Sequence record: MK327935.1
Strand: one strand, 5' to 3'
Length of the DNA stretch: 64,000 bases
From: Escherichia phage vB_EcoM_G2494
Under the pieces are notes generated by a model that did no database searches, had not been told where the DNA came from, and saw only the letters and a list, made by a program, of their open reading frames with translations. The position numbers were made by a program, and so were the translations under genes. This document shows, piece after piece, positions 2,743 to 63,688 of the stretch; within the stretch, counting starts at the first letter, position 1; each line of letters begins with the position of its first letter.

Positions 2743-2770
2743 GGAATCCTTCGGATTCCTTTTTCTTTTT
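2743..2770 (+). terminator. rho-independent terminator
   Basis: ggaatcc-ttc-ggattcc hairpin followed by T-run. Confidence 0.6.
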
Positions 2771-2772
2771 GT

Positions 2773-2780
2773 ATAAATAT
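2773..2780 (+). promoter_or_regulatory. T4-type late promoter TATAAATA for gene 24
   Basis: tataaata about 37 nt upstream of the gp24 ATG at 2817. Confidence 0.65.
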
Positions 2781-2816
2781 GATATATCCATTAAGGCAAA
2801 TACAGGATTCATAAAC

Positions 2817-4058
2817 ATGACTCATATTTTTACTGAACTGTTGCGGGAATCTACTTCCTCAGTAGCTAACCAGACAGCGCGACCGCAACTATTATCATTA
2901 ACTCGCGCGGTAAACAACCTGATTTTCTCTGATCTGGTAGCAATCCAGCCAACGGATCAACCAGTATCTGCATTGTACGGCCTACGTTATCTTAATCGTG
3001 ATGGTCAGATGACTTTCCGAACTGCTGCGACCTACGGTGGCGCGGCTGGTGATCGCACAGAGATTGAAGAGTTTTCAAAAGAAAAATCTTATGACGAAGG
3101 CGCACTGTTCAAATCAGGCGATGTTGTATACGAAGTTGTGACCGCTGGTACAGTCGGTGAAGATGCCGAAACTCCAGAATCTGCAATCTTTAAAGGCGTA
3201 ATGACAAACAAAATTCGTTTCTATAGCGATTGTGCATCGGTAGAATACTTTGAAGATAAAAACACCGAAATTGCGTCTACCTCTATGCAGTTTGACAAGT
3301 GGCAAGTTAATGTAGGTTCTCGTAAACTGAAAACCTCGTTCACCACTGAATTAATGCAGGATCTTGAGGCAAGCCAAATCAACTCTGAAAACTCTGTAAT
3401 TGATCTTCTGGCTACTGTTGCTTCCGAAGAGATCAACAAAGATATTATTCAGAAGTTGATCACTGTATCATCTCGCTATAAAATTAAAGGGATCACCCCT
3501 GATGGCGTACTTTCTCTCGTTAGCGTTCAGGATGCACCAACACAATCGCGTGAACTTTACCGCTATGCTTGCGAGATGAGCAATCAAATGTTGCGGACTT
3601 CCTCCTTTGCTGGTACATACGTTTTGGCGTCTTCTCGCGTGGTTGGCCTCCTGCAATCATCCGGTTGGATGGAAGAAACCGACAATGCTCTAAGCGAAGG
3701 TCGTCTACGTTGCGGTCTGGAAGTGTACGCAGACACGACAACACCTTTCGATTATATGCTCGTTGGTTGTAAGCACATGATCGGTGATATGGAGAGTGTC
3801 GGTTCTCTGTTCTACTCCCCATATACAGAAGCCGACGGCGCTGGCGCGTATAAGAGCGTAATTGACCCTAATAGCTTCCAGCATCATGTAGCTATTATGA
3901 ATCGTTATTCACTCTCTGTCAACCCATACACATCAAAAGTTGATCAGGAAGAACACCAGGTCATCAAGGGTGACGATTGGGGTAAAATGGCTGGACGTTC
4001 AGAAATGTCCTACATTTTAGGAATCGAACTGCCACCACTTGAGATTGACAACGCTTAA
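2817..4058 (+). CDS. 24: capsid vertex protein gp24
   Basis: Collinear similarity to T4 gp24 (ELLREST start, C-terminal MAGRS motif); true ATG at 2817, the ORF-track start at 2769 is a TTG. Confidence 0.93.
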   Translation: MTHIFTELLRESTSSVANQTARPQLLSLTRAVNNLIFSDLVAIQPTDQPVSALYGLRYLNRDGQMTFRTAATYGGAAGDRTEIEEFSKEKSYDEGALFKSGDVVYEVVTAGTVGEDAETPESAIFKGVMTNKIRFYSDCASVEYFEDKNTEIASTSMQFDKWQVNVGSRKLKTSFTTELMQDLEASQINSENSVIDLLATVASEEINKDIIQKLITVSSRYKIKGITPDGVLSLVSVQDAPTQSRELYRYACEMSNQMLRTSSFAGTYVLASSRVVGLLQSSGWMEETDNALSEGRLRCGLEVYADTTTPFDYMLVGCKHMIGDMESVGSLFYSPYTEADGAGAYKSVIDPNSFQHHVAIMNRYSLSVNPYTSKVDQEEHQVIKGDDWGKMAGRSEMSYILGIELPPLEIDNA

Positions 4059-4646
4059 CTAAATATCTAACCAAGACAAGTCAGATCCGCCAAAGATTTT
4101 TTCGACGGCGGATCTATTTTCTTGATGATATAAGTTAAAACATGGTATCCCATGTCTACGGGCAACATAAACAGCAATTCTAGTTCCTCCCGAAACGATT
4201 CCATTAACTTCTTTCGCCCAAAATATCACACAATCTACAGGGTCATCAAGTGTCTCACCTAAGACTTGAGCAACATTTCTAGAAAACAGATTTTGCATGT
4301 ATAACGGTATAGAACGAGGATTATCATAAACGTGTTCTAATTCATCCATCGCCAGATTTTTTTGTTCTAAGGTTTGCCATGCAATCACATCATGACCGTT
4401 ATGCTTGTGGTCATAAAACTTCCAATTTGGAATGAAAATTTTTCTATAATCTGGATCGTAATACTTCATGAAAGCATTGTCCATACCGTAAGCCCCTCCA
4501 GAATGCGCTACAACGCGATTTTCTGACAATACCCTCCCAATGGTACTAGCCATTATCAAAATGTCGCTAGGCGCTTTTCTAGAGCCTATTAAAGCACATC
4601 TACGAAGTGGTTTTACTCCAAATAGATCTTGTAACTGGTCAAACAT
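4059..4646 (-). CDS. SLOG/DprA-like Rossmann-fold protein (195 aa)
   Basis: GSR motif (res 21-23) and SGGAYGMD (res 49-56) typical of the DprA/Smf-LOG (SLOG) superfamily; ATG start. Confidence 0.5.
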   Translation of the reverse strand: MFDQLQDLFGVKPLRRCALIGSRKAPSDILIMASTIGRVLSENRVVAHSGGAYGMDNAFMKYYDPDYRKIFIPNWKFYDHKHNGHDVIAWQTLEQKNLAMDELEHVYDNPRSIPLYMQNLFSRNVAQVLGETLDDPVDCVIFWAKEVNGIVSGGTRIAVYVARRHGIPCFNLYHQENRSAVEKIFGGSDLSWLDI

Positions 4647-4771
4647 AATATTTCCTCCATAGAAAGCAATATCATACTACAAGTTAATAACAAATACAAG
4701 TATCCGCGTAGCGGAAGCGAGCACAGCGAGCAATAAAAACACTTCCAGTAATTGATTAATAAATGTTCGAA

Positions 4772-4825
4772 ACAAATTTTTATTATTCTATAAGATAAGT
4801 CTTCGTTTTGATCATAATTTAATCA
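4772..4825. repeat. intergenic dispersed repeat, copy 1
   Basis: acaaattttt-attattcta...cttcgttttgatcataatttaatca; related to 4925-4974 and to reverse complement of 57378-57420. Confidence 0.6.
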
Positions 4826-4924
4826 CACATGTAAAAACTACACAAAAGGATATCGCTTCGCGAACTCCTACGGAGTATAACATTTGTGTTACAATATGTA
4901 GTGATTAATAATTAACCAAAGATA

Positions 4925-4974
4925 CATTTTCTATGTTCTAAAGATCTTTCTTCGTTTTGATCATAATTTAATCA
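4925..4974. repeat. intergenic dispersed repeat, copy 2
   Basis: ttctaaagatctttcttcgttttgatcataatttaatca; about 90 percent identical to reverse complement of 57378-57420. Confidence 0.6.
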
Positions 4975-5027
4975 AACAGTATTAATATCGTGCACATGTA
5001 AACTAAAATTATGTTAATAACATATAC

Positions 5028-5054
5028 AAAAAAAGCCGCCCCGAAGGACGGCTA
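5028..5054 (-). terminator. rho-independent terminator (minus strand)
   Basis: A-run then agccgcc-ccgaagg-acggct hairpin on plus strand, i.e. hairpin plus U-run on minus strand after gene 5062-5499. Confidence 0.55.
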
Positions 5055-5061
5055 ATGTTAA

Positions 5062-5499
5062 TTATTTGTTGATAACGATCTGATTTCGGCGAATGGTAAC
5101 ATTACTCTTAGAGATGATCAGATCATCCGGCACTACGTTAGTTTTGTATGGTTGGAAGCGAACAAGCATCTGATTGCGTTTAGACCCTTCCTTAATCTTG
5201 ATTTCCATCTGGATATTGTTGCCTACGTGAGCAACCGCAATTTCACCTTTATTCTCATAGACCCACTTGCTGGTAACGTCTCCAGCAAAAGCCTTAATAA
5301 CTTGCAATGCTTCGTCGTATGCGGTAGAGCTGTGAACTTTCAGAAGGCCAGCCGTAGCAAGACGGGAGCAGGTGATCGCCGGAGATTGCCAAACATCAAC
5401 ATTAATTTGCTCAATCAGAGTAACACCGCCCTGATCAACTGCTTTGAATGCTTCGAACATTGCCTTTTTCATTGCTACGTGGGTTTTACGGAATTTCAT
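5062..5499 (-). CDS. hypothetical protein (145 aa)
   Basis: ATG with AGAGGTG SD; no recognisable motif. Confidence 0.6.
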   Translation of the reverse strand: MKFRKTHVAMKKAMFEAFKAVDQGGVTLIEQINVDVWQSPAITCSRLATAGLLKVHSSTAYDEALQVIKAFAGDVTSKWVYENKGEIAVAHVGNNIQMEIKIKEGSKRNQMLVRFQPYKTNVVPDDLIISKSNVTIRRNQIVINK

Positions 5500-52405: not shown

Positions 52406-55400
52406 ATGGCAGATTTTTCTCAACATTTCAAGGCCACATTTGGCTTTGACGCTGGTAATGAAAAGGTCGTCAATGTAGCATTGGCTGATAAGAATGTCAA
52501 CACCGATGCGGTCAACGTTGAATTTTTCAATTACCATAATGGTATTACTCAGTATGACACAACTCGCGGTTATGATCAATACGGAACTACAATCTATCAA
52601 AACCGCCCGTATTATGCAAAAGAAGATATCGCAAAACCAGCAGGTGACTTTGACCCGACTAAATGGCAAGCACTGCGCACGGACCCACGTTGGGATTATG
52701 TTGCAGCAACTTCCGGCGATACTCCTTTAAAGTCCGGTGATTATATCGCAGCGGACTGTCAGTTTGCAAACTTGACATTCTCAATGCCTACTAATCCGGC
52801 AGAGGGCGACACTATAACAGTAAAAGATATCGGTGGCAAGTGTGGTGTTAATGAGTTATCGTTCCTTGCGGCTGGTCATGAGTTCTATCATAACGGTAAT
52901 GTGTATAACCGCAAATGGTATTGCACTACCCCGTATGCAATGAACTATTTCATCTTTGTTCGTAATCGTTGGCATGTTTATCAGACAGGAACAGAGCCAC
53001 GCGGTGTGTACGCACAGCCAGCGATTGATGCTATTCAAATGCAGAATGGTGATCAGGTATTCCGCCGTAGTTCTTTGGGTAACATTGTTTTGATGCTTCC
53101 TAAGTTTGCTAATAACGGTGATATGATCCAGACTACCGATCTTGACGGATTGACTGCAACCAACCATGTTACGGTAAAAGTGCATGAAGGTGCGCAAGAA
53201 CAATCGATCGGTACTTTCGGGGTAAAAGAAATTGTTGGTAAGCGTAGCGGTCATGGTGTATTCATATTTGACAAACCGGAAAACTTATGGCGTTTGTGGG
53301 ATGGTGATCAGTCTGTTCGCTTGAATCCTATCATTAGTGATACTCGCTTATCCCCTAATAGCTATGTTGCAGTATTTGGTGATCGTGATGTTACCTTGAC
53401 TTTACCGACCAATGTCGAGCCGGGTGATCGCATTCAAGTTTCTATGCAGTATATGCACGGAAACCAGACTTGCCGAATCATTACCTCAGAAGAGGATACA
53501 AAAATCCTTATGCAGAAAAACATGGTTCAGTTTCCTAAGCGTAGCGAGTACCCATTCAATGGGACCGATACATGGAGTGGAGTGTCTGAATTGTCTTTCA
53601 ACGCTGCAAATGATTATGTACCTTATCTGGAGTTCTCTTATTCAGAAGGTGATGATGGTAAGAAATACTGGTTGGTGGCACATGCTCACCCGATTGTAGA
53701 ACGAGTAGATCCGACTCGTAAAGATCGTGTTGGTGTAATTGCACTGGCTACCCAGGATGAAACAAACAAAAACCATGAAGATAATCCTAGCGACGAAGTT
53801 GCGGTGACTCCAAAGGTTCTGGCTAATAAAACAGCCAACGAAACTCGACGCGGTATTGCTCGCATTGCAACTCAAGCGGAAACGCATCAAGATACTGGTT
53901 CCAGCTTCCTGGATGATGTTATCGTTACGCCTAAAAAGTTAAATGATTGTGTTGCTACCGAAGCCCGTCGTGGTGTAATGGAAATTGCAACTCAACATGA
54001 AACCAACGAAGGTTTAGACGATACTCGCGCAATAACTCCTAAGAAGTTAGAAGAACGTCGCGCTTCCGAAGATCTCGCTGGTATTGCTGAAATTGTTCAG
54101 GTTGGCGGTAGTGCTTCCGCTCGACGTGGCGAAGCTGGTACAGGGATCTATAACATCAACGACCATGCTAAAATTGTTACGCCACAAAACATCAACGAAG
54201 TCAAGGCGACCGAAACTTCCCGTGGTGTTGGCTATCTGGCAACTGACGCGGAAGTGCAAGGGGCTACAGAATCAACCCCGCAAGATGCTTTACTAATCAC
54301 GACTCGCACGCTAACGAAGCGTACTGCTACAGAATCGCGTACTGGTATCGCTGAAATTGCAACTCAGGAAGAAACAAACTTAGGTCAAAGTGATAACCAT
54401 ATCATCACGCCTAAAAAGCTGCATAATCGCCGCGCAACGGAAACTTTACACGGTTTAGCAGAAATTGCAACTCAGTCGGAATTTGACGCAGGTCGTGACG
54501 ATGCTCGCATTTCTACCCCATTGAAGATTAAAACCTTCTTTGAGAATGCACAGCGTTTGAAAGTAGATCCGACTCAGGGGCTTAACCTTACGGGTGACTT
54601 GTGGCAAGGTATCATGATCAGCGGTCTTGATGCAACCGAAGACACAAAAGGTGTCGCTAAAGTTGCTACTACTCAGCTTACGGATGTTGGTCAAGATGAT
54701 ACTACAATCATCACTCCTAAAAAGCTGCAAGGCAAAAAGGCCACCGAAGGTAAAGAAGGTATTATCCGAGTTGGTACTCAAGCCGAAACCGTGGCTGGTA
54801 CACTGGCTAATGTAGCAATTTCTCCGAAGAACTTCAAATATGTTGTTCAGACAGAGGATACATGGAAAGCAACCGAAGCGCGTCGTGGATTCTTGAAAGT
54901 TGCTACTCAGGAAAACTGTTTTGTTGGTGATAATCTGCAAGGTTCTACTCAAGAACTAGGAAACTACCAGCATGACGGAATTGCTGTTACTCCGAAAGGA
55001 TTAAACTACGCACTTGCTAATTTCTTACCTAAGATGGCAACCGCTCAGAATAGTTTGAAATTGGGTAACGTAGAGGCCGCTAAATGGGCGCGTAGAGACA
55101 TTGACCAGATCATAGAGAGCAATTACACGTTTAATAAAAACGTTAACGTGAAGGGCGATTTAGAGTGCTTAAAATCTGGTTCCTTTGAAACTCTGTCTGT
55201 GACTAAGAACTCTACTGATGATCTGAGTAATGGTCATCTGGTGTTGGGTGAGCGTGGAGTTGACGGTCACACCGGAATTACTCTGCATGGCACAACCGCA
55301 TCGGAAGGTATGGAAAACTCATGGTCTATTATCGTTGGTGGTACTGGAACAGCGCAAGTCGTTGATAGTGATGCTATCGCTTTCGGTAAAATCAGTGATG

Positions 55401-56146
55401 GTGGAGTCGTCGAGCATTACTCCTTTGCTATGGAACATGACGGCGATGCGTTAGCCTATAGAGACTTTATTGCAGGTCGTAACCTGTATGCGAAACAAGG
55501 CGGTTTATACATTGTTGACCAGTCTAATCCGGCAATGACTCGTTCCCCAGATGGTATGCTGAATATCGGTCACGGTGGAAGTGTTAACATCAAGGCAGGT
55601 CATCAAACGTTAACTACAGAGATCGCCGGACAGAAATATCAGATCGTCCACGCAGGAAACGCAGACGAAGTTCTTAACCGTCAGTTTGTTAAGAATGCTG
55701 GCGATACAATGGTCGGTAAGCTGACTATGGATAATGCGCCTATTGTTTCTGTTAAGCATGAAGCTAGCGCGGCAACCGCTCCGGCAATCGGTAACATCGG
55801 TTTCTGGAACATGCGAGTAACTACCCAAAACATCAAAGAAACCTATCCAGAGAAGAAAAACGGCACATTGATGCAATGGGGTACTGATGAAAACGGCCTT
55901 ACCCAAATCTGGTCACCTGATGGTACTCATAAACATTATATCCGTTCCGGTACTGGTGGTCAATGGACCGCATGGGGTGAAATTTACACCAAACAGAATA
56001 AGCCTACCGCTCAGGAAATCGGGGCAGTAGTTGCAGAAGGTGGTTTAATGAACTCTATGACGGTTCGTGATTGGATCAAAGTTGGTAATGTTAAAATCAT
56101 CGCCAATAATCTGACTCGTACCGTAGACTTTATCTGGGAAGACTAA
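52406..56146 (+). CDS. 34: long tail fibre proximal subunit gp34
   Basis: 1246 aa; repeated motifs GIAEIATQ ... ITPKKL as in T4 gp34; C-terminal GNVKIIANN. Confidence 0.93.
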   Translation: MADFSQHFKATFGFDAGNEKVVNVALADKNVNTDAVNVEFFNYHNGITQYDTTRGYDQYGTTIYQNRPYYAKEDIAKPAGDFDPTKWQALRTDPRWDYVAATSGDTPLKSGDYIAADCQFANLTFSMPTNPAEGDTITVKDIGGKCGVNELSFLAAGHEFYHNGNVYNRKWYCTTPYAMNYFIFVRNRWHVYQTGTEPRGVYAQPAIDAIQMQNGDQVFRRSSLGNIVLMLPKFANNGDMIQTTDLDGLTATNHVTVKVHEGAQEQSIGTFGVKEIVGKRSGHGVFIFDKPENLWRLWDGDQSVRLNPIISDTRLSPNSYVAVFGDRDVTLTLPTNVEPGDRIQVSMQYMHGNQTCRIITSEEDTKILMQKNMVQFPKRSEYPFNGTDTWSGVSELSFNAANDYVPYLEFSYSEGDDGKKYWLVAHAHPIVERVDPTRKDRVGVIALATQDETNKNHEDNPSDEVAVTPKVLANKTANETRRGIARIATQAETHQDTGSSFLDDVIVTPKKLNDCVATEARRGVMEIATQHETNEGLDDTRAITPKKLEERRASEDLAGIAEIVQVGGSASARRGEAGTGIYNINDHAKIVTPQNINEVKATETSRGVGYLATDAEVQGATESTPQDALLITTRTLTKRTATESRTGIAEIATQEETNLGQSDNHIITPKKLHNRRATETLHGLAEIATQSEFDAGRDDARISTPLKIKTFFENAQRLKVDPTQGLNLTGDLWQGIMISGLDATEDTKGVAKVATTQLTDVGQDDTTIITPKKLQGKKATEGKEGIIRVGTQAETVAGTLANVAISPKNFKYVVQTEDTWKATEARRGFLKVATQENCFVGDNLQGSTQELGNYQHDGIAVTPKGLNYALANFLPKMATAQNSLKLGNVEAAKWARRDIDQIIESNYTFNKNVNVKGDLECLKSGSFETLSVTKNSTDDLSNGHLVLGERGVDGHTGITLHGTTASEGMENSWSIIVGGTGTAQVVDSDAIAFGKISDGGVVEHYSFAMEHDGDALAYRDFIAGRNLYAKQGGLYIVDQSNPAMTRSPDGMLNIGHGGSVNIKAGHQTLTTEIAGQKYQIVHAGNADEVLNRQFVKNAGDTMVGKLTMDNAPIVSVKHEASAATAPAIGNIGFWNMRVTTQNIKETYPEKKNGTLMQWGTDENGLTQIWSPDGTHKHYIRSGTGGQWTAWGEIYTKQNKPTAQEIGAVVAEGGLMNSMTVRDWIKVGNVKIIANNLTRTVDFIWED

Positions 56147-56179: not shown

Positions 56180-57319
56180 ATGACACAAGAGATAGAATTA
56201 CGCAACACTGGAATTAAGTTTGCGCATTTCGACGAAGACTCCGCGACATTTACAAGCATTTCAGAAAACAACTCTGTGATGTATAAGCTGGAAGTGCGCG
56301 GATCTAATGCGGATTCTACCAAACCAGCAAGAATTAGATTTAATGGAGTGGAGATCGTTGGCGCTGGCTATGAAAATGGCCTAAATTTTAAAGTTCTTAC
56401 TCCAACTGGACAACTACACGAAGAAAAGGTATTCTATGGTCGCGGTGCTGTTTTGGCGATGCGTGATTATCTTTCTTTGCTGAAAGGTGATTATATCATT
56501 GCGATGGCAACGCATGGAGAATTGTTTGCAGATCCGATAAGTGATGTTGTATTTTCTAAGATGGGATCTGTATCATTCCCGAATCACATTTTGCTACAGC
56601 AAATGCCTCGTGTATCCTATGCAGCAATTTATTCTACTAAAATGGGTAAAATTGTGTGCGAAGGGATGCAAGCAACGCACGGAGAAGGTCAAGATTCGTC
56701 TATACAAATTGAGAAAGTTTATGATACTATAGACGATCTTGCAATAACAGGAACACCACAACGATTTTTAGATTATCCGGTTGAGTATGTTAGCGAAGAT
56801 GCCGAACATTTCGAGCTAATACAATGGCCTCATGATGAGATCAGCGCACCACTTGAATATTTTAACATAAAGGCAGGTGACAAACTATCAATATCCTTTG
56901 AATTGTTCCGTGATAGTGCCGCAGCCGCAGCCAACGTAACAGCGCGTTTCTATCACAACTACTTCACCGATGGACAATATCAAACTGGTGTTCGATACAA
57001 TGCCAGCAAAAAAGACCAATGGGAAAAGTTTGAAGCCGTCTATACCGTACCGGAAGGAGTTGATAGTGTAGTAACTGGTTGTATCAGATATCCAACCAAC
57101 TCCAATGAAGGTATTGTTAAAATTAGAAACATACTAATAACGCCGATCAGTGGAGTCGTCAAAACTACTGGTCCTACTTCATTTGGTGTTAATGGTGTTA
57201 GAACAACTCATATTCAGGATAACGGTGATTTTACTAACCCTGTAATGAGTCTTCTTAAACTGCCTAGAGATAATAAACACATCACATCCAACAACTTTAA
57301 AGAGTTCGATGTTGATTAA
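56180..57319 (+). CDS. 35: long tail fibre hinge protein gp35
   Basis: Synteny and size (379 aa). Confidence 0.8.
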   Translation: MTQEIELRNTGIKFAHFDEDSATFTSISENNSVMYKLEVRGSNADSTKPARIRFNGVEIVGAGYENGLNFKVLTPTGQLHEEKVFYGRGAVLAMRDYLSLLKGDYIIAMATHGELFADPISDVVFSKMGSVSFPNHILLQQMPRVSYAAIYSTKMGKIVCEGMQATHGEGQDSSIQIEKVYDTIDDLAITGTPQRFLDYPVEYVSEDAEHFELIQWPHDEISAPLEYFNIKAGDKLSISFELFRDSAAAAANVTARFYHNYFTDGQYQTGVRYNASKKDQWEKFEAVYTVPEGVDSVVTGCIRYPTNSNEGIVKIRNILITPISGVVKTTGPTSFGVNGVRTTHIQDNGDFTNPVMSLLKLPRDNKHITSNNFKEFDVD

Positions 57320-57330
57320 CATTTTTAACA

Positions 57331-57360
57331 AGCCGATCCATGTGGTCGGCTTTATTTTTA
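57331..57360 (+). terminator. rho-independent terminator after gene 35
   Basis: agccga ... tcggct hairpin followed by TTTATTTTT. Confidence 0.6.
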
Positions 57361-57377
57361 TACAGTTGGTTAAATTG

Positions 57378-57470
57378 TAACCAAAACGAAGAAAGATCTT
57401 TAGAATAATAGAAAATTTGTTTCGGTTAAAAATTAGTCAGTGCCTACGGCACGTCGCGAAGCGATATTTT
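57378..57470. repeat. intergenic dispersed repeat, inverted copy of elements at 4772-4974
   Basis: Reverse complement closely matches 4772-4825 and 4925-4974, and less closely 4846-4890. Confidence 0.6.
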
Positions 57471-57480
57471 GTTAACATTC

Positions 57481-57488
57481 TATAAATA
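57481..57488 (+). promoter_or_regulatory. T4-type late promoter TATAAATA for gene 36
   Basis: tataaata 36 nt upstream of gp36 ATG. Confidence 0.65.
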
Positions 57489-57523: not shown

Positions 57524-59014
57524 ATGGCAGATTTGAAATATGGATCTACTGTAGGCGGATCTCCCATTTGGACGCAAGGAAACTTGACGATCCAGCCAGC
57601 GGGGGATCAGCTTTTCTACAAAGGTCATAAAATCTATACCGCTTTTGATAGACCTTCGGCTACCGATTTTGATGCTGTTAGTGCATCCGAAGGTGGCACA
57701 TTTCAAAAGCAAGTTCATTTCGAGGAAGGTTTAAGCGTAGGTAGCGCATCGGCTGGAGAAACCAAAAAGAACGGGATCTTTAAAGGAAAGAGCGATGCTG
57801 CTAACTTTGATGGTGTAAGTTGGGGTCTGCATTCGTGGAAATCCATTGGTTTTGTTAATGCTCGTGATGATGTTATCATGGCTTATATTGACACTACCAC
57901 AGGTGATTTTAAAACTAAAGGGACCATCGAAGGGACAACCATTAAAGACACTGGTCAACGCGTCTATAGTCCTGTTAATAAGCCGACAAACAATGATTTG
58001 GATTTGGTGTCTCGTCGCGGTGATACTCTCACGGGAACGTATAATTTAAACACGGCTACATTTAAACTTGATGTTAATTCGAAAATACTTGCGCGGGATC
58101 GTGGTTTCATTGCTTTCGATTCTAATGCCATTTATTTTGGAAATAGTCTTGATACTTTGGCATTCAGTAGCAAAAACGAGCCGACAATTTCTGTTAATGG
58201 CAAGGCAGGTAGATTCTACCACACCAACAATAAACCGACTAAAGCCGATGTTGGACTAGGTAATGTCACCAATGATGCACAGGTTAAACGTGCTGGTGAT
58301 ATTATGGAAGGCAACTTGCAAGCGCCTAGAATGTTGGCGACAAACGATCCTGCTGGTCCTAATGAATTGGTTCGTTTGAGCTACTTTGAGAGAAAATCAA
58401 TGGTAGCAAATCCAACAATCATTGGAAACGTTGATTGGAACACTCTTATTAATCGCGGTATCTATCGTGTGGAAAATGCTGGATCAGGTACTAATAAACC
58501 GTCTGATAGCTATTATAACGGCGTTTTGATGGTATATCGCCCAGAAGATGCGGTCGGTACTCGTCGAATTGTTCAGGTATACTATCCTGAATCTATTGAT
58601 CATCCGATGTGCTGGCGTTCTTGTTCTAATGAATCATGGACTGCATGGAACTATGTAGATCACCGTAAATTGGCTGATATTCGCTATGTTAACGTCACTG
58701 GCGATACCATGACAGGACCGTTAACTGTTCCGGCGGCAAATGGCGTTCATACCGCAGAAGCTAACTATAATGGTGATAATTGCTACGCTGGACTTAATAG
58801 CTTAAATGGCACAGCAATGATTCATCGTGTTAGTGATATTAAAGCGCACGAGAAACTAGGCATCACACATGATTCTAAAATTATTTTCGTTAAATCACGC
58901 AACAATACTCAGGACACCGATACATTTGAATTATACCACGAAGGACACAAACCAACTCCTGATGATGTTGGCGCTGTTCCGCTTAATGCGGTAATTGATT
59001 TTGGTACTTTCTAA
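57524..59014 (+). CDS. 36: long tail fibre distal subunit gp36 (extended, 496 aa)
   Basis: N-terminus MADLKYGSTVGGSPIW matches T4 gp36 MADLKVGSTTGGSVIW; much longer than T4 gp36. Confidence 0.8.
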   Translation: MADLKYGSTVGGSPIWTQGNLTIQPAGDQLFYKGHKIYTAFDRPSATDFDAVSASEGGTFQKQVHFEEGLSVGSASAGETKKNGIFKGKSDAANFDGVSWGLHSWKSIGFVNARDDVIMAYIDTTTGDFKTKGTIEGTTIKDTGQRVYSPVNKPTNNDLDLVSRRGDTLTGTYNLNTATFKLDVNSKILARDRGFIAFDSNAIYFGNSLDTLAFSSKNEPTISVNGKAGRFYHTNNKPTKADVGLGNVTNDAQVKRAGDIMEGNLQAPRMLATNDPAGPNELVRLSYFERKSMVANPTIIGNVDWNTLINRGIYRVENAGSGTNKPSDSYYNGVLMVYRPEDAVGTRRIVQVYYPESIDHPMCWRSCSNESWTAWNYVDHRKLADIRYVNVTGDTMTGPLTVPAANGVHTAEANYNGDNCYAGLNSLNGTAMIHRVSDIKAHEKLGITHDSKIIFVKSRNNTQDTDTFELYHEGHKPTPDDVGAVPLNAVIDFGTF

Positions 59015-61898: not shown

Positions 61899-62699
61899 AT
61901 GGCAGTAGTTGGTGTTCCTGGTTGGATTGGAAGTTCAGCCGCAAATGAAACAGGACAACGATGGATGAGTCAAGCGGCTGGTCAATTAAGATTGGGTGTT
62001 CCTTGCTGGATGAGTCAATTTGCAGGTCGCTCGCGAGAAATTATTCATACTGTAGGAGCAAACCACAATTTTAATGGTCAGTGGTTCCGTGATAGATGCT
62101 TTGAAGCTGGCGGTGCACCTATTGTATTCAATATTGTTGGTGATATCGTTTCTTATTCTAAAGATGTACCGCTTTTCTTTATGTATGGTGACACTCCTAA
62201 CGAATACGTTGTCCTTAATATTCATGGTGGTGTCCATATGTGGGGTCGAGGTGGTAATGGTGGATACACTCACTCAGGTGGAGATGGTAACGGTACACAA
62301 GGCGGTCATGTTATTCAAAATGATATCGGTGGACGGCTTCGTATTTGGAACTACGGTGTTATAGCTGCTGGCGGTGGTGGCGGTGGTGGTATTGCATATC
62401 GTCCACACTCAGGGGCAAACTGGCAAGATATCGGTGGCGGTGGCGGTCGACCTTTCGGTGGTGCTGGCGGTGGCGGTTATTCCGGTGGTGCTGCTTCTTA
62501 TGAAGGTCCGGGTGGTGGTTACAACTATGGTAACGCACACTCCGGCGCGGGTGGTAATGCTGGCGCTGCTGGTCAGAATGCATGGTCTGATGGCGGTAAA
62601 GTTCTTAAAGTTGGTGTTGGTGGTGCTTCTGGTCATGCCGTGTTTGGATCTTCTCCAACTTGGGGCGCTGTAGGGACAATTTATGGACCTTACATTTAA
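61899..62699 (+). CDS. 38: gp38 receptor-recognising adhesin (T2-type, glycine-rich motifs)
   Basis: N-terminal [14 protein letters not shown] ... and poly-Gly segments as recalled for T2-type gp38. Confidence 0.8.
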
Positions 62700-62758
62700 C
62701 CGTTAAAAAAGAATTAAGGAAAAATCCCAGGGAAGGGAACTACTAAGGAGAAACGGCT

Positions 62759-62998
62759 ATGGTCTATAATATCGTCATTGGTGCTTTGTCTAATTTCGGA
62801 ATGAAATTATTGTCAAAGTTAATTAGTGAAAAGATGCTCACTAAAATTTTCTTCTATTGCGCTCGTCGTCTTGCGGCTTATACCAATACGCCAATTGATG
62901 ATCGTTTTGTGGAAGAACTTTATAAGGAGTTTAATAAAGATCAGTCAGAAGATAGTAACGAGCAAGATAAACCTAGTGATAGTCAACTACCTAAATAA
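62759..62998 (+). CDS. hypothetical protein with hydrophobic N-terminus (79 aa)
   Basis: AAGGAG SD; between gene 38 and holin. Confidence 0.5.
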   Translation: MVYNIVIGALSNFGMKLLSKLISEKMLTKIFFYCARRLAAYTNTPIDDRFVEELYKEFNKDQSEDSNEQDKPSDSQLPK

Positions 62999-63031
62999 GA
63001 GTACACTGTCATAGTTATCTTAGGGCATTAT

Positions 63032-63688
63032 ATGCAAGTTTCTGAAAAAGGGAAAGACTTTGCTATCTCAAATGTCCTGCGCGCTATTTTCACAACTAAA
63101 AGCACGGAGTTGCTCGTACTTCGTGTTTTTGCTGCCGTCGTGTTGTCCATATTAGCATTTGTCGTTTATAGTAAAAACGAGTTATTTGCGCTTTATAAAG
63201 AGACTCGTTATGAGACTTATGCTCACATTCTCCAGGTAGAGAAAGACCGCAATTTTGATAATGCAGCACAGGAGCAGTTACAGATAGTTCATGTGTCGGC
63301 TGATGCCGATTTTTCTGCTGTTTTTAGTTTTCGTCCGAAAAACCTAAACTATTTTGTTGATTTGGTGGCATATGAAGGAAAGCTACCTCACACAATCGAT
63401 GAAAAAAATTTAGGCGGATTCCCTATCAATAAAACGAGTGAAGAATATCGTAGGCATCTTTTAGGTAAATCATATTTTACCGATAAAGATTTCCAGTATA
63501 TTCCATCAAGAGAAAAGAAATTAGAGAATATCGATATAGGGTTTATGTATTCTTGCCCTATATTCAATCTCGATAATGTCTATTCTGGTAGTATCGCCAT
63601 TGCATGGAAGAATAAACCGGATATTGACATTGAGAATTTAGATACTCTTTGCAATCAATCTGCCAGAATCCTCGGAAGGATTAGATAA
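63032..63688 (+). CDS. t: holin T
   Basis: 218 aa; QLQIVHVSADADFSAVFSFRPKNLNYFVDLVAYEGKLP ... ARILGR matches T4 holin. Confidence 0.92.
   Translation: MQVSEKGKDFAISNVLRAIFTTKSTELLVLRVFAAVVLSILAFVVYSKNELFALYKETRYETYAHILQVEKDRNFDNAAQEQLQIVHVSADADFSAVFSFRPKNLNYFVDLVAYEGKLPHTIDEKNLGGFPINKTSEEYRRHLLGKSYFTDKDFQYIPSREKKLENIDIGFMYSCPIFNLDNVYSGSIAIAWKNKPDIDIENLDTLCNQSARILGRIR

Follow-up and report, generated by a model that had tools for sequence, protein, structure and literature searches.

What is the repeat that recurs in the intergenic DNA of a T4-type coliphage, in direct copies upstream of a DprA-like gene and as an inverted copy upstream of a gene 36 homologue, and what might it do there? A first-pass annotation of the DNA analysed here (the window: 64,000 nucleotides of Escherichia phage vB_EcoM_G2494, record MK327935.1) had noticed the element and had offered a regulatory site, a recombination hotspot, or the remnant of a mobile element as its possible nature. 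Judged by its sequence, the window is Krischvirus DNA (RB49-like T4-type coliphage); the 1.6 kb around the first locus was 95–99.9% identical to 58 phage records, all of them Krischvirus (RB49, phi1, JSE, GEC-3S, and others).

Four oriented copies in Krischvirus

The repeat sequences quoted in that annotation were located where it had placed them. Its direct copies were borne out by 89% identity over 38 nt between 4792–4829 and 4941–4978, and its inverted copy by a 24-nt exact match between two of the units named below, B and A2 (BLAST E ~1e-8 in the window); B was also similar to A1 and to the 'atatcgcttcgcga' segment. Units A2 and A1 lie in tandem upstream of the DprA-like gene, B lies upstream of the gene 36 homologue, and C lies upstream of gene 3. 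This last copy, which had not been recorded before, brought the count by genome self-comparison to four; it falls outside the window, at 62870–62785 on the minus strand of RB49, and shares 97.7% identity with B over 87 nt. The segment duplicated between B and C extends from the first hairpin of the unit (hairpin 1) to the end of the second of its closing hairpins, with sharp boundaries. Most of the 58 Krischvirus records had four matching places (blastn).

Two outcomes had been named as fatal to the repeat, similarity limited to low-complexity AT-rich sequence and lack of conservation in any relative, and neither was found. A profile of the 77-nt core described below recovered every copy in the 164 kb RB49 genome at E 1e-11 to 1e-19 with no other match (nhmmer); with the BLAST statistics, this rules out chance or low-complexity AT similarity. 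The element is present in 58 of 58 Krischvirus records, and a family of E. coli prophages carries a homologue. The 13-mer of the repeat, searched alone with two mismatches, gave 9 matches against 5.4 expected, which is not significant; the significance of the repeat rests on the longer alignment and not on the 13-mer.

The genes and signals around the two loci of the window are as follows.

2769–4058, plus strand: gene 24 (RB49 annotation)
4059–4646, minus strand: DprA-like gene, previously called SLOG-like, phrog_768 (RB49 annotation, PHROGs)
5034–5053, minus strand: intrinsic terminator of the upstream 145-aa gene, with a UUCG loop and T-run, immediately 5' of A2
5062–5499, minus strand: orphan gene (RB49 annotation)
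52406–56146: gene 34 homologue (RB49 annotation)
56180–57319: gene 35 homologue (RB49 annotation)
57330–57352, plus strand: intrinsic terminator of the gene 35 homologue, immediately 5' of unit B
57481–57488, plus strand: T4-type late promoter motif TATAAATA of the gene 36 homologue, downstream of B and outside the element
57524–59014: gene 36 homologue, start codon at 57524 (RB49 annotation)

The same orientation relative to the downstream gene, claimed earlier for the two loci of the window, holds for all four copies at all three loci, and the start codon follows 38–59 nt past the end of the last hairpin; that of the DprA-like gene, at 4646, lies 57 nt beyond the terminal hairpin of A1. Each Krischvirus unit has either a divergent gene or a strong intrinsic terminator on one side and the promoter or Shine-Dalgarno site of the downstream gene on the other, and the three loci are late-gene regions. 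The site equivalent to 5034–5053 carries a terminator annotation in phage GEC-3S. The late-promoter consensus against which TATAAATA was matched is that of PMC1524935, and the sequence downstream of copy C, AATAAATA, is an accepted late-promoter variant in RB49-like phages (PMC1524935).

Anatomy of a unit and its prophage relative

Each module spans ~100 non-coding bases: a 77-nt imperfect palindrome (the core), then short GC hairpins with 3-nt loops and a GATAY/T-rich tail. By inspection, no small ORF lies inside the element in any frame. The repeat noticed in the first pass exists, but its units are longer than had been thought, and the 77-nt palindrome, like the fourth copy and the prophage relative, was absent from that description. 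A 'related segment' at 4846–4890 does belong to the repeat; it is not a separate copy but the twin hairpin that closes unit A2 (4876 to 4853), homologous in architecture to 57440–57465. The parts of the units in the window are these.

4900–4976, minus strand: core of unit A2, a 77-nt imperfect palindrome that starts TTTGATTAAATTATGATCAAAACGAAGAAAGATCTT, has TAGAAC at its centre, and finishes TTGGTTAATTATTAATCA (nhmmer E 1.6e-15 for the RB49 equivalent)
4935–4940, minus strand: -10-like hexamer of A2, TAGAAC, without the final T
4853–4876, minus strand: twin hairpins of A2, ACTCC-GTA-GGAGT (4876 to 4864) and TCGC-GAA-GCGA (4863 to 4853), then TATCCTTTTG
4751–4827, minus strand: core of unit A1, a 77-nt imperfect palindrome 149 nt downstream of A2 (inverted repeat with 31-nt arms; nhmmer)
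4785–4790, minus strand: -10-like hexamer of A1, TAGAAT, at the palindrome apex, with TGATCA 18 nt upstream
4717–4731: direct repeat GCTCGC, twice, preceding the terminal hairpin of A1
4703–4715, minus strand: terminal hairpin of A1, TCCGC-TAC-GCGGA, then a T-rich tail (scored terminator-like)
57355–57366, plus strand: 12-mer TTTTTATACAGT abutting the 5' end of B (RB49 12-mer count)
57365–57441, plus strand: core of unit B, a 77-nt imperfect palindrome with hairpin 1 TTGGTTA-AATTG-TAACCAA, the conserved block CAAAACGAAGAAAGATCTT, and TAGAAT at 57401–57406
57440–57465, plus strand: twin hairpins of B, GTGCC-TAC-GGCAC (57440–57452) and GTCGC-GAA-GCGAT (57453–57465), then ATTTTG (the second scored terminator-like)

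The register of the palindrome is fixed within the core, position i pairing with position 78-i, and the -10-like hexamer at its centre is TAGAAT in A1, B, and C and TAGAAC in A2. Hairpin 1 opens the 5' arm, as TTGGTTA-N5-TAACCAA in B and C and as TTGATTA-N5-TGATCAA in A1 and A2. The block that follows it, CAAAACGAAGAnnnATCTT, is invariant across copies; for sequences other than the window and RB49 this is in part built in, because the block doubled as the retrieval pattern. The 3' arm is much less conserved than the 5' arm. Within lineages, the places that vary are the loop of hairpin 1 (five loops, the stems invariant), the bases next after TAGAAT, and the A-run ahead of the twin hairpins.

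Two GC hairpins, 0–1 nt apart, close A2, B, and C; one closes A1. Those of C are as in B, with AAA or GAA as the second loop. The last loop reads GAA on the sense strand in most units, the exceptions being RB49 copy C (AAA) and A1 (TAC). Three-nucleotide-loop hairpins of this kind (GAA, TTC, GTA, or TAC closed by C-G) number nine in the RB49 genome, six of them inside the four copies, as compared to ~2 in shuffled genomes. The pattern of an intrinsic terminator, a GC-rich stem-loop with a U-run directly behind it, was seen at the last hairpins of B and A1, weakly at that of A2, and not at those of C and of the prophage units.

The 12-mer TTTTTATACAGT beside B occurs only twice in RB49, the second time 20 nt beyond the 5' end of C and inverted relative to that copy. 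Three records from different laboratories (kvi, Skers, and pEJ01) all begin at RB49 position 62901, inside this 12-mer; the pEJ01 study employed PhageTerm, and the kvi record lacks the 811 bp left of position 62901, including gene 3 and copy C. Either a genuine preferred DNA end or a convention that was copied may lie behind this shared record start.

A relative of the core was found outside the phage genus. When viral contigs were scanned for the pattern and the matches compared by BLAST, it appeared at 76–85% identity over 60–85 nt in ~25 contigs of 17–45 kb, which represent a ~36 kb E. coli prophage family inserted in hicB. Its genes include a serine recombinase, siphovirus-type structural genes, a gpA-type terminase, and a Rha regulator; no replication genes were recognisable in the prophage genome. 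Of 5,426 complete E. coli genomes, 58 carried the prophage; with the phage element as query, 53 genomes were found. Each prophage carries a single copy, at the edge of a 1.26 kb gene-free control region that also holds eight AGTGTAGGTTT iterons, one sigma-70 promoter matching 11 of 12 positions, and two further 'TAGAAT ... GTA hairpin + GAA hairpin' units without the conserved 5' arm. One of these has TTGTTA-18-TAGAAT and was scored promoter-like; the other is convergent with it. Five of the six prophage TATAAATA motifs also fall in the control region, a clustering that is due to its AT-rich promoter DNA.

The centre of the prophage core is TAGAAT (TATAAT in one variant). Its twin hairpins are GCAACC-GAA-GGTTGC with ATCCC-GAA-GGGAT, or GACGCTC-CCT-GAGCGTC with TGC-GAA-GCA, and no U-run follows them. 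These stems are unrelated to those of Krischvirus, with the architecture and the GATAY tail identical; the hairpin is kept between lineages although stem sequences differ. The sequence GCGAAGC itself recurs in A2 and B, in part of the C copies, and in the prophage. An LprI-like gene (56–64% amino-acid identity) and a distal tail-fibre segment are further sequences that the prophage has in common with RB49 (tblastn), from which it follows that DNA has moved between the two; the element itself was apparently exchanged horizontally, as judged from these similarities. A DNA-binding protein common to both was sought with the same search, which returned only that gene and that segment. The genes neighbouring the prophage element were all orphans in PHROGs and Pfam, bar one small-terminase-like protein. 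A physical prophage end (cos) at the element was rejected, as contig ends were scattered and none was common.

Wider searches added no further lineage. Among 50,697 phage records the element was confined to Krischvirus (blastn); a plasmid search found no element, a search of one genome per species gave chance pattern matches only, and a metagenome scan returned the two known lineages only. Two looser viral pattern scans yielded no third lineage among the matches listed (342 loci, profile screen).

A possible small transcription unit

Of the three explanations offered in the first pass, a regulatory one fits best, because it accounts for the constant orientation, for a position with a terminator upstream and the downstream gene's own promoter on the other side, for the -10-like TAGAAT, and for the terminator-like hairpins; the signs of recombination or mobility are circumstantial. 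More specifically, each copy may be a small autonomous non-coding transcription unit, or a promoter-leader cassette, a tentative reading to which we assign a probability of roughly 40%. The conserved 5' half would then be a promoter region for the host sigma-70 RNA polymerase, composed of the AT-rich hairpin-1 region, a weak -35 (TnAnCA), a conserved spacer of 17–18 bp (AAACGAAGAnnnATCTT), and TAGAAT as the -10. Transcription would start a few bases past TAGAAT and proceed through an AU-rich stretch of 30–90 nt, to be terminated or attenuated at the GC hairpins with their 3-nt loops and T-rich tail. This would yield a short structured RNA of ~55–95 nt or, by read-through, extra mRNA for the downstream gene. 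The sequences show the anatomy, the copy number, the orientation, the conservation, and the homology to the prophage element; the use of TAGAAT as a -10, the action of the hairpins on RNA, and a role for that RNA are what we infer.

Several observations argue for such a unit. A terminator upstream and the next gene's own promoter downstream give the layout of an independent unit, and 4 of 4 copies are co-oriented with the downstream gene. TAGAAT is conserved and is replaced by TATAAT in one prophage variant; its spacing from TnAnCA is 17–18 nt; and substitutions and indels are found in the bases that follow it, as would be expected of a start-site region. Element-specific hairpins close the unit, two of them scored terminator-like. 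The paralogous units of the prophage indicate that the recurring part runs from TAGAAT to the hairpins, which we count in favour of the same reading, and the boundaries of the B/C duplication are gene-like.

Against it stand features of the same sequences. The -35 fits at only 3 of 6 positions, and a promoter scan of both window loci found no sigma-70-type site on the sense strand, the best candidate being TnAnCA-17-TAGAAT with 8 of 12 positions. TAGAAC in A2 lacks the near-invariant final T. The spacer is the best-conserved stretch of the element, beyond what a plain sigma-70 promoter needs, so that something other than plain sigma-70 must read CAAAACGAAGA. A promoter also leaves the fixed-register palindrome, the strongly covarying pair, and the reliance on G-U pairs (see below) unexplained, and the prophage hairpins, without a U-run, are not canonical terminators. 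A literature search found no transcriptome of an RB49-like phage. The transcription unit and the three alternatives that follow, an RNA hairpin, a DNA site, and a relic, are not mutually exclusive.

RNA hairpin, DNA site, or relic

The palindrome could instead act as RNA. Transcripts reading through the element would fold the core into a hairpin of ~23 bp, with a role in RNase III-type processing, in stability, or as an insulator between transcription units; we consider this cis-acting RNA unlikely. RNAfold predicted a common, long and irregular hairpin for the sense RNA of the prophage, A1, A2, and B cores, and for C it gave this hairpin as the centroid structure, although the 3' arms have diverged: an outer stem of 7–8 bp, an internal loop, a middle stem of 10+5 bp, and TAGAAU in the apical loop. 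When 17 distinct cores were aligned without gaps, 81.8% of cells paired in register as compared to 30–55% with the partner slid by 1–3 columns (~70% of positions when only Watson-Crick pairs were counted). Pair 15:63 occurs as four pair types (CG, GC, GU, AU), one per lineage, and pair 17:61 as three. Several differences are of the A-U/G-U or U-G/U-A kind, in which pairing is kept only in sense-strand RNA, and the orientation of the units always follows the direction of transcription. DNA energy parameters gave local hairpins only, which favours RNA over DNA as the folded molecule and leaves a cruciform or a long hairpin in single-stranded DNA unsupported.

The local model of hairpin 1 was 92.6% paired with one compensatory pair, and the G:C/A:T change that the first pass had seen there is genuine, pair 5:17 being AU in 10 sequences and GC in 4. 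Other results weigh against the long hairpin. Its z-scores were modest (-1 to -2), and RNAalifold favoured local hairpins only, with a total of -2.6 kcal/mol, and did not recover the long helix. The far greater conservation of the 5' arm is unlike that of a purely structural element. The A and B copies lie directly behind strong terminators, and copy C and the prophage copy have neither a co-oriented upstream gene nor a conserved upstream promoter from which read-through would come. At copy C, hairpin 2 of pEJ01 has the exact inverse of the RB49 loop (TAC/GTA), and B and A2 differ in the same way; by its sequence, such an inversion indicates hairpin-mediated template switching at the DNA level, and the complementarity of the arms could therefore be partly mutational upkeep rather than selection. 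Because the comparison covers only ~5 independent lineages, we regard the predicted structure as suggestive, not decisive.

A known RNA family was also sought. Rfam gave no match over the whole window at the gathering score, and at permissive thresholds the loci and the prophage region gave only chance-level matches (E >0.02). Dispersed, oriented, imperfect-palindrome intergenic repeats that can form irregular RNA hairpins of ~20 bp are familiar from the intergenic RNase III hairpins of T7 and from ERIC and Correia elements, the last of which can carry promoter-like boxes. The likeness ends with an oriented palindromic intergenic repeat foldable into such a hairpin: there is no sequence similarity to any of them, and the present element has four copies and specific twin hairpins with 3-nt loops.

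A role at the level of DNA also seems unlikely to us. The element could be an origin-type module like T4 ori(uvsY)/ori(34), could be bound by a host protein, or could mark places at which DNA is nicked or ends are formed. As an origin, it would consist of a promoter with an upstream box that is not of the sigma-70 type, next to AT-rich DNA that unwinds; stable hairpins would form on the displaced strand. T4 oriF and oriG are ~100 bp units with a promoter that has a sigma-70-like -10 and a special -30 box, followed by a sequence-nonspecific AT-rich unwinding element, and active T4 origins lie in late-gene regions near strand switches (PMC3016281). The likeness is one of layout only: ~100 bp, a sigma-70-like -10, a non-sigma-70 upstream box, AT-rich DNA downstream, and a setting in late-gene regions. 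RB49 has no MotA and no middle promoters (PMC1524935). The T4 origins, by contrast, are MotA-dependent, have no palindrome or twin hairpins, sit at other genes, and have no sequence similarity to the element. TAGAAT and an AT-rich downstream stretch are present, which may correspond to the promoter -10 and the unwinding element of an R-loop origin, and conservation of the upstream half and not the downstream half would fit the same picture, as would the position of the prophage element beside the array of eight AGTGTAGGTTT iterons in a genome with no recognisable replication genes.

The twin hairpins bear on the same question. GNA mini-hairpins with 3-nt loops, of the d(GCGAAGC) type, are known from the early promoters of phage N4 and from single-strand initiation signals, and C-GAA-G and C-GTA-G loops are a very stable motif in DNA; the hairpins of the element resemble them in their short GC stems and C-G closure around GAA or GTA. 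Neither Krischvirus nor the prophage, however, encodes the N4-type virion RNA polymerase. The TAC/GTA flip between RB49 and pEJ01 at one locus points to hairpin events in DNA, and a 12-mer that occurs only twice flanks B and C, with three GenBank records starting inside it, although that common start may be convention rather than a physical end. Further against a DNA-level role, no site-reading protein was found in common between the two phage groups (only the tail-fibre segment and the LprI-like gene), the ~70% Watson-Crick pairing and the folds with DNA parameters make a cruciform unlikely, and comparison by eye with several E. coli binding-site consensus sequences gave no convincing match.

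That the element is a relic, or a recombination homology patch like the promoter-early stem-loops (PeSLs) of these phages, with no present function and kept because the genus is young, strikes us as quite improbable. Across the element the 58 Krischvirus records agree at 92% identity or more, so that conservation within the genus carries little information; the element and two genes were apparently exchanged with the prophage; the 97.7% identity of B and C suggests recent duplication or gene conversion; and copy C has an insertion junction at its 3' edge (in a metagenomic relative) and adjoins a homing-endonuclease polymorphism. Yet Krischvirus and the prophage differ by 15–25% with the register, TAGAAT, and the twin-hairpin architecture kept on non-homologous stems, within-lineage variation spares the stems and falls in loops and spacers, and neither the strict orientation nor the strand-specific GAA loop would be expected of a relic. 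A MITE- or ERIC-like mobile repeat was rejected, as no terminal inverted repeats with target-site duplications were seen at the four copies, which are only four and keep one orientation relative to genes.

PeSLs themselves are the nearest system within the genus. In RB49 and phi1 they combine a sigma-70 promoter of consensus -35 and -10 with a GGGG...CCCC stem, number ~50 per genome, lie mostly in hyperplastic regions upstream of ORFans, and act as recombination patches (Arbiol et al. 2010, PMC2839356). The present element is likewise a small repeated intergenic cassette with a promoter-like part and a stem-loop just upstream of genes, and both occur at indel junctions, so that it too could serve as a recombination patch. 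It is nevertheless not a PeSL: neither locus has a sigma-70 consensus promoter on the sense strand, the stems (TTGGTTA/TAACCAA and 4–5 bp of mixed GC with 3-nt loops) contain no G/C tracts, and its only four copies lie at gene 3, the gene 36 homologue, and the DprA-like gene, in late-gene and core regions. Given these differences, the lack of an Rfam match, and the layout-only likeness to T4 origins, we take the element to be a new variant of composite promoter/stem-loop cassette with a putative function; in sequence it matches no described element.

It is also conceivable, if highly improbable, that the element is a cis-signal common to a lytic T4-type phage and a resident E. coli prophage. 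As a promoter or origin box it may be read by a factor of Krischvirus infection, and the prophage could use it to sense, resist, or exploit that infection. Alternatively, specific DNA ends or nicks may be made at the site, the 12-mer TTTTTATACA^GT being found only beside B and C (at RB49 149998/149999 and 62900/62901) and three independent records beginning there. Defined genome ends are not known from T4-like phages, nor middle promoters from RB49; a shared signal, if true, would be a new cross-phage regulatory or DNA-end signal in T4-like phages.

Apart from that possibility, a discrete, strictly oriented module in four copies is a concrete candidate for a role in middle transcription, for a replication origin, or for a small RNA in RB49-like phages, which lack the MotA middle-transcription system of T4. 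Its sharing with a temperate prophage, alongside tail-fibre and LprI-like genes, suggests that non-coding, putatively regulatory DNA crosses between virulent and temperate phages of one host. RB49-like phages are used in phage-therapy cocktails, and an unannotated, putatively regulatory or recombination-prone element near their tail-fibre genes may thus be of practical interest as well.

The 12-mer beside copies B and C and the starts of database records

Across the whole 164 kb genome of the Krischvirus RB49 there are exactly two copies of the 12-mer TTTTTATACAGT, both on the plus strand and both about 20 nt or less from the 5' end of a copy of the element (B, before the gene 36 homologue, and C, before gene 3):

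Window 57355-57366, plus strand: TTTTTATACAGT, adjoining copy B
RB49 genome 62891-62902 (12891-12902 of its sequence piece L003), plus strand: TTTTTATACAGT, near copy C

The GenBank records of the related Krischviruses kvi, Skers and pEJ01 begin at an identical base inside TTTTTATACAGT, at TTTTTATACA^GT. This shared start could mark a point where the DNA physically ends or is nicked, or it could be a start convention copied from one record to another. The kvi record (MN850615.1; L344) is labelled 'complete genome'; it ends within gene 1 and is without approximately 811 bp (equivalent to RB49 62090-62900), including the essential gene 3 and copy C of the element. The record is probably incomplete, with its break adjoining the repeat.

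Variation in and around copy C

Copy C of pEJ01 (L345, 275-382) and that of RB49 (62785-62830) have the same stem in hairpin 2, the first GC hairpin after the core, but its 3-nt loop is exactly reverse-complemented (TAC/GTA) between them. Such an inversion is characteristic of template switching mediated by a hairpin. The intergenic region between genes 3 and 2 is plastic. It holds the following small gene in RB49 and, in about one-third of genomes, a homing endonuclease of the GIY-YIG/segC type:

RB49, within 62748-63222 (the gene 3/gene 2 intergenic region), opposite strand: RB49p130, a small gene carrying the late-promoter motif AATAAATA

In L040, a metagenomic relative, the RB49 sequence directly after copy C is replaced by a sigma-70 consensus promoter (TTGACA-17-TAGATT), which places an insertion junction at that point.

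A candidate promoter and a look-alike array

The DNA separating unit A1 from the beginning of the DprA-like gene contains TTGTAT-17-TATGAT (window 4669-4697, minus strand), a possible sigma-70-type promoter; it fell under the threshold of the promoter scan because its -35 hexamer matches at just three of six positions. Elsewhere, an unrelated 64 kb viral contig (L192) contains a tandem array (3219-4051; 6.4 units of 130 nt) whose units carry CATACAGTTGGTTAAAAAGTAATCAAAAC, a close match to the 5' flank and hairpin 1 (the 5' arm start of the core) of copy B. The array did not match the profile of the element core, and the likeness may be coincidence or a putative common binding motif.

The prophage control region and genes shared with RB49

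The single-copy relative of the element lies in a gene-free control region of an E. coli prophage of about 36 kb, inserted in hicB; no replication or repressor genes were recognisable in this prophage:

L036 7753-8998 and L095 12004-13264: control region, 1.26 kb
L095 16443-17222 and 1-1958, versus RB49 157925-158683 and 151717-154656: segments shared by prophage and RB49

The control region contains eight AGTGTAGGTTT iterons (replaced by CAGGGGCAAAAAT in other variants), three TAGAAT/twin-hairpin units and one sigma-70 promoter (11/12), and five of the six TATAAATA motifs of the prophage cluster in or around it. Prophage and RB49 have in common an LprI-family (lysozyme-inhibitor-like) gene, with 56-64% amino-acid identity and stretches above 90%, and the distal tail-fibre protein is shared in part, at 42% over 376 aa. 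This shared gene and tail-fibre part are evidence that genes have passed between a virulent T4-type phage and a temperate one.
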